From assembly GCA_031119595.1 (NCBI GenBank), contig JAVHXX010000005.1, forward strand, positions 1 through 27,016: a stretch of 27,016 bases of DNA, read 5' to 3'. A program made the position numbers and the translations under genes. A model generated the notes under the pieces. The model worked only from the letters and a program-made list of their open reading frames with translations. It was not told where the DNA came from and ran no database searches. This stretch comes from Patulibacter sp. Lineage in GTDB: Bacteria > Actinomycetota > Thermoleophilia > Solirubrobacterales > Solirubrobacteraceae. This document shows, piece after piece, positions 15,785-18,729 of the stretch. Positions within the stretch are counted from its first letter, which is position 1, and each line of letters starts with the position of its first letter.

Positions 15785-17833
15785 TCAGCGCGCGTCGCTC
15801 AGGCGCGAACTGACCTGCTGTTCAGGCACGGAGCCGTCCACGTCGGCGGTGCGCGGTACGCCGTCGGGACCGGTCGCGGCGCCGACGCGCGCCGCTACCG
15901 GCCAGAAGATCAGCGGCTCATGGCTTCCCAGCAGCAGCGACGTCGTCGACAGCCGGCGCTGTTGCTCCGCGGCCCGGGCCAGCAACGCTCCGGTGTCGAG
16001 GCCGGCGACGACGATCTCGAACGGCACCGTGAACCCGGTGTCGTCGGCCAGATCGGGCTCGCGCACGAGCGTCGTGACGCTGGTCGGCTCCACGCGCAGG
16101 GCCGGCCACTCGCCGCGCAGTCCCGGATAGGTTGAGCCCGTGGCGTGGTCGATCAGACGAACGCGCCCGTCCGGAGTCCCGCCGGCCTCGGCGACACGCC
16201 GGTGCACGAGATCGAGCACCGGTCCCGGCACGGGCACCCCGACGATGTCGGCGATGGCGCGCACCGTGGCCGCGAGGTGCGCGACCGGCCGAATCGGTTG
16301 GCGGAACGGGTTGCCGACGGTCGGCAGCCGCGCGCTGCCATCGGCCAGCGTCACGGAGAAGCCGAGCGCGGCGAGCTCCGGCCATGCAGCGAACAGGGCG
16401 TGGCGGTCGTTGTCAGACAGGGGTCGATTCGTCGTCCGGACGTCGGGAGCCGCGAGCGCCCCGTCGCCCACGGTGACCACCAGCCGGACCCCGCAGTCGA
16501 CCGGAACCGGAACGCGCAGCAGCCGTTCGGGCTCGTCCGGCGGCGTGGTCCAGGCGAGCTGCCCGAACACGTAGTACGGCGCCACGATGCGGCTGCCGGT
16601 CCGCAGCGCAGCCGCGTGCACCGTCGTCGTGCCCCGCGTGTCCCGCCCGAGCAGGGTCGCCGGGTGGGCGAACACGACGGCGGCGGCGCGTTGGTTGGCC
16701 GCCCGGGCGACCGCGACCGCGTCCTCCCAGTCCCGGAGCGTCGGCGAGCCGTCGCCCTCGGCGAGTCGCGTACGCCAAGCCCTGGTCAAGGAGGCGGTGA
16801 AGCCCATCGCGGCCGGTACGCCCACGGTTTCCCCCTGGAAACCGATCACGAGCGGCGCGCCGAGCTCCGAGACGGTGGCGGCGAGCGAGGCCGTGAGCCA
16901 GGCGTCCCCACCAGGTGCAGGCGACTCCGCCGAGCCGCAGCTCGCGAGCACGACCGCCGAGGGATTCCGGGCCCGTTGGTGATCGGTGACGAGGGTGCCG
17001 ATCGTGTACCCGTCGAGGGGTTCGTCCGGGGTGTCGTCCGCGTCGAGCCCACGGTCCGGGGTGCCGGTTCCGGTGACCATGAGGAGGTCGGTGAACCGCA
17101 GCGCCGACGGATCGGCCTGCAGCGCCGACCACGATGCGTGGTCGGTGACCTCGCGGTGCGCACCATCGAGTCCGAGCGTGGAGGCGGCGTCGTCGGTCAA
17201 CGGCCGACCGCTCGTGCGCACGACCATCGCCTGGAGGCCGTCGACCTCGGCGGGAGCGAAGTCGGCGACGGACCACGGGTCGGCGGTGCTGACGCTGCCG
17301 GGTGTGCGAAGGATCGAGACGCCCCTCGCGAGCACGGAATCGAGGCTGTCGGCCAGGGGCCAGAACAGCGTCTCGACGGGGATCCTCGCCGCCTGGTCGT
17401 CGCGCGCGCGGAAGACGAACCGCACGTGCTTCGCCCCGGATTCGGCGGCGTCCACGAGTTCGGCGATGCGGTCGCCGCCGACGGCGTTCTGGAGCGCCAT
17501 CCCCACGAACGTCCCCCACCAGCGGAGCACGTCGGTCGCCCCGCCCTGGTACAGCCCTCGCGGGAGCGCGGCGAGGTCGGCGCCGGGGTCGTCGCGGAGC
17601 CAGGCGATGGTCTGGCTCGCGAGGCCGAGATCGTCCCAGCGGCCTCCCGGCCAGAGCACCTTGCCGACGCAGAGCGGCGCCGCGTGGACCGCGCGCACCT
17701 CCTTGCCCTCGGCGTCGCGGAGGACCTGTTCCTCGAGCAGGTCCACGTCGGCGACGAGCCCGGGCCGCGCGCTGCGCGTCACCTGGGCGAACCCCCAGGT
17801 GACGCGCAGCTCGGCGACCGGCGACCGGCTCAC
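15785..17833 (-). CDS. CHAT (caspase-like) domain protein, probably lacking the catalytic His, with an extra C-terminal domain
   Basis: ARIPVETLFWP (cf. LPWExL), DLLMVTGTG (cf. DILHFAGHG), AVVLASCGSA (cf. LVVLSAC) and LAATVSELGAPLVIGFQ...AAMGFTASL (cf. LA.AL..AG.P.V.AMQ...AA..F). GTGA overlap with the carbamoyltransferase. Confidence 0.75.
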   Translation of the reverse strand: MSRSPVAELRVTWGFAQVTRSARPGLVADVDLLEEQVLRDAEGKEVRAVHAAPLCVGKVLWPGGRWDDLGLASQTIAWLRDDPGADLAALPRGLYQGGATDVLRWWGTFVGMALQNAVGGDRIAELVDAAESGAKHVRFVFRARDDQAARIPVETLFWPLADSLDSVLARGVSILRTPGSVSTADPWSVADFAPAEVDGLQAMVVRTSGRPLTDDAASTLGLDGAHREVTDHASWSALQADPSALRFTDLLMVTGTGTPDRGLDADDTPDEPLDGYTIGTLVTDHQRARNPSAVVLASCGSAESPAPGGDAWLTASLAATVSELGAPLVIGFQGETVGVPAAMGFTASLTRAWRTRLAEGDGSPTLRDWEDAVAVARAANQRAAAVVFAHPATLLGRDTRGTTTVHAAALRTGSRIVAPYYVFGQLAWTTPPDEPERLLRVPVPVDCGVRLVVTVGDGALAAPDVRTTNRPLSDNDRHALFAAWPELAALGFSVTLADGSARLPTVGNPFRQPIRPVAHLAATVRAIADIVGVPVPGPVLDLVHRRVAEAGGTPDGRVRLIDHATGSTYPGLRGEWPALRVEPTSVTTLVREPDLADDTGFTVPFEIVVAGLDTGALLARAAEQQRRLSTTSLLLGSHEPLIFWPVAARVGAATGPDGVPRTADVDGSVPEQQVSSRLSDAR

Positions 17834-18729
17834 GCCGCGAGTGCCCGGTCGAGGATCGCCATGCGGGTGAAGAGGGCGGTCCGACTCTGCTCGAAATACC
17901 CGGCGGCGTCGAGATCGTCGACGTCACGTTCGATCTCGTCGAGCCGGGGAAGCGGGCAGAGGATCCTCGCCTGGGGCTGGAGCGAGCGGACGACCGCGGG
18001 CGTGATCCGGAGCGCGGCCTGCTCCTCGGGTGCCAGTCGACCACCATCCGGCGTCCCGGCGGGCAGTCCGGCGACATAGACGACATCCACGTCGTCGACG
18101 TCGAGCGTCGCCGTCTCCTCGACGGTGACGCCGTTCCGCGTGAGCTCGGCGTGCAGTGCCGCCGGGAGATGCAAACCGCGCGGGGCGATCGAACGGATCG
18201 TCACGCCGTCGAAGGACCCGAGGGTGAGGGCCAGCGAACGGGCGGTCCGGCTCTCGAGGAGGTTGCCCACGATCGCGATCCGCAGGCCGTCGACGGCGCC
18301 GACCTGGCGCTGGATCGCGAACACGTCGGCGACGGCTTGGCTCGGGTGCTCGTCGAGGCCGTTCCCACAGTTCACGATCGAGCAGCGCAGCGACCCGGTG
18401 AGGCGTCCGACGAGCGTCGGGTCGCCGGTGCGCAAGCACGCGACATCGCACCAGTCGGCGACGCTCCGCACGGCGTCCTCGACCGATTCGGCGTAGCCCA
18501 TCGCGTCACTCCTCTTGGTGGCGACGAGCGCAGCCGTGCGTGCGCCGAGGCGCGCGGCGGCGACGTCGAACCCGACCCTGGTCCGCACGGAATCCTCGAA
18601 GAACCAGAGTCCGACGACCGCACCCTCGTGCCGCGTCCCGGTGCCGACTTCGTACGACCGGGCCGACGCGAGCAGCGTCTCGATCGACGTGCGGGTCAGG
18701 TCGCGGGCGCTGAGGAGGCTTTCGCCCAC
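17830..18729 (-). CDS. Aspartate/ornithine carbamoyltransferase family protein (ATCase-like, divergent)
   Basis: LLSARDL, FFEDSVRTRVGF, VNCGNGLDEHPSQ, VGNLLESRTARS, CPLPRLDEI and YFEQ...RMA. GTG at 18729 follows a GGGGG purine tract. The ORF extension to 19206 is shadow frame of radical SAM B. Confidence 0.9.
   Translation of the reverse strand: MGESLLSARDLTRTSIETLLASARSYEVGTGTRHEGAVVGLWFFEDSVRTRVGFDVAAARLGARTAALVATKRSDAMGYAESVEDAVRSVADWCDVACLRTGDPTLVGRLTGSLRCSIVNCGNGLDEHPSQAVADVFAIQRQVGAVDGLRIAIVGNLLESRTARSLALTLGSFDGVTIRSIAPRGLHLPAALHAELTRNGVTVEETATLDVDDVDVVYVAGLPAGTPDGGRLAPEEQAALRITPAVVRSLQPQARILCPLPRLDEIERDVDDLDAAGYFEQSRTALFTRMAILDRALAA

Follow-up and report, generated by a model that had tools for sequence, protein, structure and literature searches.

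A candidate non-aspartate carbamoyltransferase of the ATCase branch in a radical SAM and ATP-grasp gene cassette of Patulibacter

The gene described here lies in a 27,016-nt stretch of Patulibacter sp. DNA (contig JAVHXX010000005.1, positions 1 to 27,016), referred to below as the window. It occupies positions 17830–18729 of the minus strand, begins with GTG and encodes a 299-residue two-domain transcarbamylase resembling aspartate carbamoyltransferase (ATCase). Its start overlaps the stop of the upstream radical S-adenosylmethionine (SAM) enzyme gene by 34 nt, and its stop overlaps the GTG start of a downstream gene for a 682-residue protein by 4 nt. Public records label the product aspartate carbamoyltransferase, and the Protein Atlas places it only in generic clusters of that name. 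The comparisons presented below support another assignment, namely a transcarbamylase of the ATCase branch whose residue pattern indicates that the carbamoyl-phosphate site is intact and the acceptor site rewired, and which is not the housekeeping PyrB of its host.

The transcarbamylase and its active site

Membership in the superfamily is supported by both Pfam domains, found in the right order and above their gathering thresholds: OTCace_N (PF02729; 88.1 bits, threshold 29.9) and OTCace (PF00185; 48.6 bits, threshold 29.4). The carbamoyl-phosphate motifs of the superfamily (SxRTR, HPxQ and the xPLP/HCLP-type loop) are all present, as SVRTR, HPSQ and CPLP. The PyrB equivalog models stay below their cut-offs (TIGR00670, 176.2 against 236.95 bits; NF002032, 174.2 against 263). 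Models of other transcarbamylases score far lower than the PyrB ones: the ornithine carbamoyltransferase (OTCase) model TIGR00658 gives 77.5 bits against a cut-off of 280.85, and among the models used for AOTCase, SOTCase, PTCase and YgeW, the AOTCase model NF003384 reaches 40.5 bits (cut-off 288) and TIGR04384 reaches 45.3 (cut-off 500).

An AlphaFold2 monomer model built from a 34-sequence alignment has a mean predicted local distance difference test (pLDDT) score of 95.6. Its best Foldseek matches are ATCases, several of them as complexes with N-(phosphonacetyl)-L-aspartate (PALA), at template-modelling (TM) scores of 0.85–0.89 and 27–32% identity; they include the enzymes of Methanocaldococcus jannaschii (2rgw), Escherichia coli (1q95, 1d09) and Arabidopsis (6ys6). 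The protein shares with PyrB the two-domain fold, the length and an unknotted topology, the last judged by the secondary structure of the model. Unlike PyrB, it is encoded outside a pyr operon, lacks a PyrI partner and is linked to a radical SAM enzyme. The initial annotation, made from the DNA alone, had remarked that no pyr genes lie nearby, and this is borne out: the sole phosphoribosyltransferase gene of the window (25576–26085) is of the purine type. A true pyrB is found in the same genome on contig C610 (291.9 bits on TIGR00670), together with carB, and an argF-like gene lies on yet another contig. Since the genome has its own pyrB and argF, the window protein is a third, non-housekeeping transcarbamylase.

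Residue equivalences were derived from HMMER alignments to the solved ATCases 2rgw, 1ml4 and 6yw9 and checked in a multiple alignment that included the PyrB and ArgF of the same genome. All positions below are on the minus strand. The motif S47-V48-R49-T50 (18580–18591) corresponds to the phosphate-binding S52-T53-R54-T55 of the E. coli enzyme, with Val in place of Thr53. R100 in C98-L99-R100-T101 (18427–18438) is the equivalent of R105, and H128-P129-S130-Q131 (18337–18348) supplies the equivalents of H134 and Q137, which bind the carbamoyl group. In C258-P259-L260-P261 (17947–17958) the backbone ligands of the carbamoyl NH2, P266 and L267, are kept and H265 is replaced by Cys. The ligand of the α-carboxylate in ATCase, R167, is also retained, as R161 of E159-S160-R161-T162 (18244–18255).

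The elements that would hold the rest of the aspartate are changed. The 80s loop reads DAMGYAES (18484–18507; alignment to 2rgw), with Tyr79 at the position of Lys84, Asp75 at that of Ser80, a conserved Met77, and Glu81 preserving E86. The 240s loop reads VYVAGLPAGT (18052–18081) in place of the ATCase motif RxQxER, so that R229 becomes G221 and Q231 becomes P223. In ATCases these two residues bind the β-carboxylate of aspartate (PMC4581275). Ser80 and Lys84 of ATCase come from the adjacent chain, transcarbamylases being trimers whose active sites draw on neighbouring subunits. The six motifs on which the initial annotation had built its case (SVRT, CLRT, HPSQ, ESRT, VYVAGLPAGT and PLP, the last within CPLP) were all located on the minus strand where it had placed them; the loss of Lys84 and the change of H265 to Cys had escaped it.

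A clade with a distinct residue signature

A word-indexed search returned 29 relatives, the window protein included, at 38–100% identity, followed by a gap to ordinary PyrBs; a profile search over 1.84 billion cluster representatives gave many more. When 173 rows were placed in a maximum-likelihood tree (IQ-TREE quick search, LG+G4; root on the ArgF of the same genome), 76 of them, including the window protein, proved monophyletic with an SH-like approximate likelihood ratio test (SH-aLRT) support of 99. The phylogeny against PyrB and ArgF that the initial annotation had proposed as a check thus places the protein in a separate clade. The clade rows are 50%-identity representatives, mutually less than 50% identical, and were compared column by column with 96 canonical rows in E. 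coli numbering.

The ligands of carbamoyl phosphate are retained in 69 to 76 of the 76 clade rows, in agreement with what had been read from the window protein alone. S52, R54, R105 and H134 are invariant in both sets (76/76 and 96/96), T55 occurs in 75/76 clade and 96/96 canonical rows, Q137 in 74/76 and 96/96, P266 in 74/76 and 88/96, and L267 in 69/76 and 94/96. E86 is likewise invariant (76/76 and 96/96), and R167 is kept in 75/76 and 95/96. The acceptor side is a different matter. Lys at position 84 is present in 90 of the 96 canonical rows and in none of the clade (0/76); position 229 is Gly in all 76 clade rows and Arg in 92/96 canonical ones; position 231 is Pro in 63/76 and Gln in 91/96, respectively; position 265 is Cys in 62/76 and His in 88/96. 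Position 82 is Met in 71/76 clade rows, whereas the canonical residue varies (V/A/I/T) and Met is not among the commonest. The RxQxER motif and K84 are thus missing from every clade member, and the replacement of the aspartate-gripping 240s motif, first noticed in the window protein, proves to be a property of the whole clade.

Taken together, the alignment columns show a carbamoyl-phosphate site under long-term purifying selection and a complete and uniform loss of the β-carboxylate ligands. Because the acceptor-site changes are fixed in the clade and the donor ligands are kept, the pattern is not one of chance or decay, and a dead enzyme would not be expected to conserve its catalytic carbamoyl-phosphate ligands so strictly across such deep divergence. 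The replacement of Thr53 by Val, to which the initial annotation drew attention, holds for the window protein but not for the clade, where position 53 is Leu in 34 rows, Thr in 32 and Val in 8; Val or Leu here is a sub-clade trait of roughly half of the clade and does not define the family. We propose the following signature: Gly229; (L/F/M)-P at 230–231; no Lys84, with Met two residues before that position; Cys or Ser265; and an adjacent or fused gene of the radical SAM type described in the next section. The window protein shows every item of it.

Three Cys residues of the window protein, C98 (18436–18438), C121 (18367–18369) and C258 (17956–17958), all encoded on the minus strand, replace V103, A127 and H265 of ATCase. 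All adjoin active-site elements, and Cys occurs at these positions in 39, 44 and 62 of the 76 clade rows, respectively, a conservation at the level of sub-clades; they could form a metal or redox site. Elsewhere in the tree, within its canonical ATCase part, the proteins P0132, P0134 and P0138 also lack K84 and RxQxER (one example has TRAYYAES as the 80s loop and IYLPSYAKGR as the 240s loop), and their sequences suggest a further group of aspartate-blind ATCase paralogs, distinct from the clade.

Several described transcarbamylases share single traits with the clade. The OTCase motifs DxxxSMG and HCLP, of which SMG and HCLP are seen in the ArgF of the same genome, are absent from the window protein in the alignment. 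The N-acetyl- and N-succinylornithine transcarbamylases, AOTCase (SMRTR) and SOTCase (SLRTR), have a hydrophobic second residue in the STRTR motif, similar to the Val or Leu found at position 53 in part of the clade; they also carry a hydrophobic residue (Trp) in place of the 80s-loop Lys/Gln and use a neutral acylated amino acid as acceptor (PMC4581275). Unlike the window protein, they belong to the knotted OTCase side and possess a proline-rich loop, an extended 120s loop, HCLP, and a conserved acceptor Lys and Glu. The only non-aspartate enzyme described on the ATCase branch is ureidoglycine transcarbamylase (UGTCase) of Rubrobacter xylanophilus (PMC4581275). Like the window protein, it is an ATCase-branch paralog from Actinomycetota with a "pseudo ATCase" annotation, a changed 240s loop and a retained R167 (R189). 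However, its published signature keeps STRTR, S102 and K106 in the 80s loop, H(T/S)LP, and S258/K261, all of which the clade lacks, and its context is purine catabolism and not a radical SAM/ATP-grasp cassette. The absence of this signature indicates that the clade is not UGTCase, as far as the published description goes.

Partner enzymes and immune-type neighbours

Gene neighbourhoods were read on the actinobacterial side in Solirubrobacter and in metagenome-assembled genomes (MAGs) of Solirubrobacterales, Patulibacter, Mycobacteriales and Pseudolysinimonas, and further in a gammaproteobacterial MAG, an Acidobacteriota MAG, Jorgensenbacteria, many Saccharibacteria and two archaeal MAGs. Directly upstream of the window transcarbamylase lies the gene of a 397-residue radical SAM enzyme (18696–19889, minus strand; Pfam Radical_SAM, NF045502), which we call rSAM-B. 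An ortholog, 35–79% identical, adjoins the transcarbamylase in 22 of the 24 loci, spanning Actinomycetota, Gammaproteobacteria, Acidobacteriota, candidate phyla radiation (CPR) bacteria and archaea, and the family is 50–80% identical across phyla. Stop-start overlaps between the two genes are usual, 34 nt in the window and 4–16 nt elsewhere. One of the two remaining loci is cut by a contig end, and the other has only the transcarbamylase and an ATP-grasp_3 gene. On the contig of P0030 (L017:4849–5727, uncultured bacterium), these two genes interrupt the str operon between rpsL-rpsG and fusA, where they stand alone, without rSAM-B.

The ATP-grasp enzyme is a conserved member of the cassette, encoded in the window on the convergent arm (10045–11403, plus strand; ATP-grasp_3 matched in 11/11 homologs), with orthologs 40–69% identical beside the transcarbamylase in other loci. 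A nitroreductase-family flavoenzyme is a frequent fourth member (5603–6241, minus strand; Pfam Nitroreductase; its start is placed at Met169 of a long open reading frame), and its orthologs, 47–62% identical, lie beside the cassette in many loci. A second radical SAM enzyme, rSAM-A (8894–10048, plus strand), which is a paralog of rSAM-B at about 36% identity, is also encoded on the other arm of the window. The partners also occur as natural fusions: rSAM-B with the transcarbamylase in P0075, the transcarbamylase with ATP-grasp_3 in P0129, and, in P0077 and L024 (a Nanoarchaeota MAG), the transcarbamylase with a C-terminal RaSEA-like radical SAM domain (173–183 bits on TIGR01210, cut-off 212). 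These fusions settle the functional link between the transcarbamylase and its partners. Judged by gene order, rSAM-B is an obligate partner, and the linkage of the transcarbamylase to rSAM-B and the ATP-grasp enzyme is fixed. The initial annotation had tied a non-aspartate carbamoyltransferase to radical SAM enzymes; the rewired acceptor site and the coupling both stand, and its list of partners was incomplete, the ATP-grasp enzyme and the usual nitroreductase having been overlooked.

A model of rSAM-B (pLDDT 91) matched in the PDB only generic barrels (RlmN, MqnE, LipA, HydE, BioB, NifB, PylB and ThiH; TM-scores about 0.44), and phmmer searches of PDB sequences with rSAM-B and with the ATP-grasp enzyme gave nothing at E ≤ 0.01. 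The predicted complex of rSAM-B with the transcarbamylase received a score of 0.00, which counts neither for nor against binding. A radical SAM enzyme is paired with a ligase or transferase that handles amino acids in ArcS-RaSEA (archaeosine) and PylB/PylC/PylD (pyrrolysine) as well, and the cassette recalls these pathways, the more so as the Nanoarchaeota transcarbamylase is fused to a RaSEA-like domain and PylB is among the generic fold matches. These pathways, however, have no transcarbamylase, and rSAM-B matches the model of neither family, so the resemblance is one of logic and not of membership. In some loci a PLP-dependent decarboxylase of the Orn/DAP/Arg or Orn/Lys/Arg type lies near the cassette (L007:11627–15380; L004:4961–6289), in L007 accompanied by a further radical SAM enzyme and a 442-residue protein without assignment; such a neighbour hints at a basic amino acid as starting material.

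The remaining neighbours are of an immune type. Behind the ATP-grasp gene, at 11400–15781 of the plus strand, the window encodes a large protein without a recognised domain, here called SIR2-like, followed by an NTPase with nSTAND1 and pentapeptide-repeat (Pentapeptide) Pfam matches. The nSTAND1-pentapeptide module is also present at L004, L010, L011, L012, L016, L063 and L064, and in the first five of these the NTPase is paired with a large SIR2-like protein, as in the window. Two contigs that carry fusions are the most compact versions: L063 consists of an rSAM-transcarbamylase fusion, a TIR_2 protein and the nSTAND1/pentapeptide NTPase, and L064 of rSAM, a transcarbamylase-ATP-grasp fusion, an 826-residue protein and the same NTPase. 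At L006 and L007 a stand-alone pentapeptide-repeat protein is found in the operon, beside integrase, transposase and VapBC genes. Conflict systems resembling nucleotide-binding leucine-rich repeat (NLR) receptors are built in this way, from a constant sensor-type NTPase and exchangeable death-type domains (PMC8195603).

The 682-residue protein encoded downstream of the transcarbamylase (15785–17833, minus strand) occupies the slot held by TIR or SIR2-like proteins at other loci; homologs occur in L010 and, with weak similarity, in L012. It has no Pfam match even at E ≤ 1 and none in NCBIfam or PADLOC. The initial annotation had described the surroundings as a radical SAM/CHAT operon: the radical SAM part is upheld by the gene overlap, the recurrent adjacency and the P0075 fusion, and the CHAT label is not confirmed. 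Near the start of the window lie the genes of an NrdG-like activase-type radical SAM enzyme (Fer4_12; 920–1711, plus strand) and an AAA_2 (ClpB-like) ATPase (1815–4001, plus strand), a pair with matches to the PADLOC candidate models PDC-M37B and DolB, those in the scan of ten locus proteins coming from the ATPase only. The pair recurs near the cassette in Solirubrobacter (L004:1007–4082; 47% and 31% identity) and possibly forms a defence module of its own within the island.

Carbamoyl donor, acceptor and possible role

From the fold, the residue pattern, the clade, the linkage and the fusions, we infer an activity, a donor, an acceptor class and a role of the product. In our judgement the window protein is rather probably a catalytically competent, carbamoyl-phosphate-dependent N-carbamoyltransferase for an amine other than aspartate, acting in a pathway wired to NLR-like conflict genes. 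The donor would probably be assembled and bound as in ATCase. Aspartate would not be held, as the three residues that bind its β-carboxylate, K84 (contributed by the neighbouring chain), R229 and Q231, have given way to an 80s loop with Met and a Gly-(Leu/Phe)-Pro turn. The acceptor may be a small amine with a carboxylate beside the amino group, in keeping with the retained R167, and with the rest of the molecule neutral or bulky and packed against the 80s-loop Met and the Gly-Leu/Phe-Pro turn. This profile would suit an amino-acid-like intermediate that the co-translated rSAM-B produces or uses up: either rSAM-B makes the amine, or the ureido product is passed on to it. The transcarbamylase would thereby belong to a fixed unit of three to four enzymes, with rSAM-B, the ATP-grasp enzyme and, usually, the nitroreductase-fold flavoenzyme. 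In this and many other genomes this unit is operonic with the nSTAND1-pentapeptide NTPase and with interchangeable SIR2-like, TIR or 682-residue proteins, and for this reason the carbamoylated product is most likely the small-molecule arm of the system (a signal, cofactor or toxin) and not a pyrimidine precursor.

Several observations weigh against this proposal. The retention of R167 is no proof that the acceptor carries a carboxylate. K84 is catalytically important in ATCase, and its loss could lower turnover; OTCases, on the other hand, function without a Lys at this position of the 80s loop (PMC4581275). E50 and R234, which close the two domains of ATCase, are variable or lost in the clade, which means that the closure mechanism must differ from that of ATCase. 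The fold search of the PDB gave no specific structural relative of rSAM-B and hence no clue to its substrate. A scan of PADLOC-DB 2.0 with ten proteins of the locus produced no match for the transcarbamylase, either of the radical SAM enzymes, the ATP-grasp enzyme, or the 682-residue, SIR2-like and STAND proteins. Finally, tblastn with the window proteins detected no STAND partner beside the cassettes of CPR and DPANN genomes, so the immune link may be secondary.

Where the carbamoyl group comes from is of particular interest in small genomes. Whole-genome searches covered five cassette-bearing reduced genomes of 0.8–0.9 Mb each, four of Saccharibacteria and one of Nanoarchaeota. None contained a CarB above the cut-off, and none gave a carbamate kinase match in a search that was positive in 14/14 control genomes. 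For three of the five, the search for transcarbamylases returned the cassette copy alone; in the Nanoarchaeota genome the sole match is again the cassette copy, there above the PyrB cut-off; the fifth has one extra match, to a canonical pyrB that lies within a few kb of the cassette. This last genome is the Saccharimonadales MAG G003, in which the canonical pyrB (320 bits on TIGR00670), a dihydroorotate dehydrogenase-like (pyrD-like) gene, an amidohydrolase gene and an HD-domain gene lie 4–7 kb from the cassette (L023:10150–13911). It has no detectable carB or arcC that could supply carbamoyl phosphate to its PyrB.

These genomes raise the possibility, which we regard as unlikely, that the cassette ATP-grasp enzyme is not an amide ligase that uses the product as substrate but a stand-alone carbamate (or bicarbonate/formate-type) kinase supplying carbamoyl phosphate or a close acyl-phosphate analogue. 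With neither CarB nor carbamate kinase detected, nor any transcarbamylase outside the cassette neighbourhood, the best CarB-like match in each of the five genomes is the cassette ATP-grasp open reading frame of about 450 residues, aligned to CarB residues ~648–885 in the carbamate-phosphorylating half; the enzyme may therefore make the donor, in the role that carbamoyl phosphate synthetase (CPS) plays for ATCase in CAD. Among PDB entries, the profile of the ATP-grasp enzyme aligns over 150–170 residues with CPS, in its second ATP-grasp domain, and with PurT (E ~3e-6), and G003, with pyrB, pyrD-like and amidohydrolase genes so close to the cassette, has no detectable CPS. The P0129 fusion, joining an ATP-grasp domain to an ATCase-fold enzyme, is likewise reminiscent of the CPS-ATCase fusion of CAD/URA2, but it has a single ATP-grasp domain of about 450 residues, no amidotransferase and no dihydroorotase, and the similarity to CPS is at the level of the ATP-grasp superfamily. 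Moreover, hhalign against the two CarB halves of the same genome shows a slight and non-decisive preference for the C-terminal half (39.7, probability 44%) over the N-terminal one (34.2, 19%), the top PDB match is the peptide ligase PGM1, over only 56 residues, and the ATP-grasp enzyme of the window falls short of E ≤ 0.001 with the CarB model. Gaps in the MAGs are also conceivable, and the Patulibacter genome has carAB and needs no second source. A donor supplied from within the cassette would change the logic of the pathway but not the identity of the transcarbamylase. As a further step, which we consider decidedly unlikely, rSAM-B, the transcarbamylase and an ATP-grasp enzyme acting as a minimal carbamate kinase could form a self-contained metabolite factory whose product is read by the nSTAND1-pentapeptide NTPases with their swappable TIR, SIR2-like or other killers. 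Such a kinase would explain how the cassette works in CPR and DPANN cells devoid of CPS, carbamate kinase or another transcarbamylase.

Other readings concern the acceptor and the direction of the reaction. It is very unlikely that the enzyme carbamoylates, at a Lys side chain or at the N-terminus, a peptide made by ribosomes and modified after translation (RiPP), with the radical SAM and ATP-grasp enzymes acting as further tailoring enzymes. Enzymes of both kinds commonly tailor RiPPs (for graspetides, see PMC8939145), and a 40-residue Lys/Pro-rich open reading frame (MGFNPEIKKPTKPVE...GAGVKKP; 21309–21428, plus strand) is 75% identical to one at L010:5233–5352 (minus strand), the closest relative locus, being more conserved between the two than several flanking proteins. 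However, this frame lies 1.4 kb from the start of rSAM-B, on the opposite strand and behind another gene; searches of the other 20-plus cassette loci did not recover the peptide, and no precursor-like small open reading frame is consistently called beside the cassette. As a universal substrate it is therefore rejected, and the Lys-containing peptide acceptors suggested by the initial annotation are weakened accordingly. Nor does a peptide acceptor sit well with the retention of R167 in nearly all clade rows or with the known ATCase/OTCase-fold enzymes, all of which use small molecules in a closed inter-subunit pocket (PMC4581275). A phosphorolytic role, in which energy is gained by breaking a ureido compound down to carbamoyl phosphate and an amine, as by catabolic OTCase, PTCase and the proposed UGTCase, and the ATP-grasp enzyme recovers ATP, seems hardly probable: such enzymes have been proposed on the ATCase branch (UGTCase; PMC4581275) and fermentative CPR bacteria with reduced genomes commonly carry the cassette, yet the five small genomes have no carbamate kinase and the UGTCase signature (STRTR, H(T/S)LP, 80s-loop Lys; PMC4581275) is absent. 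An operon with TIR, SIR2-like, STAND and mobile-element genes is also ill-suited to energy harvest, for which a radical SAM enzyme would be an odd partner. The public annotation and the closest solved relatives, all ATCases, would agree with a second functional aspartate carbamoyltransferase or with an inactive pseudoenzyme sensing carbamoyl phosphate or nucleotides, but we regard both as extremely improbable, the former given the universal loss of RxQxER and K84 in the clade, the sub-threshold PyrB score and the true pyrB in the genome, and the latter given the strict conservation of all catalytic carbamoyl-phosphate ligands over deep divergence.

Transcarbamylases are a small and well-studied family, in which each new acceptor (N-acyl-ornithines, putrescine, diaminopropionate/diaminobutyrate, ureidoglycine) has uncovered a new pathway. 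In the clade described here the kind of enzyme is known and the variant is new; the surrounding gene system appears to be undescribed, as no published account of the cassette was found in the literature searched. The clade is large: it comprises at least 76 clusters at 50% identity and ranges over Actinomycetota, Saccharibacteria and Nanoarchaeota, among others. Its members are uniformly labelled PyrB in databases, which inflates the apparent capacity for pyrimidine synthesis, especially in genome-reduced CPR and DPANN organisms; the signature G229, P231, no K84 and C265 separates them from PyrB in annotation. The protein itself is a defined, soluble and well-folded target for substrate screening. 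Were the cassette indeed a metabolite factory, it would represent a new kind of small-molecule immune or conflict system built on an ATCase-fold enzyme. More broadly, the partnership with radical SAM and ATP-grasp enzymes and the repeated wiring to STAND, TIR and SIR2-like genes suggest that the conflict systems of prokaryotes include a small-molecule pathway not yet described.

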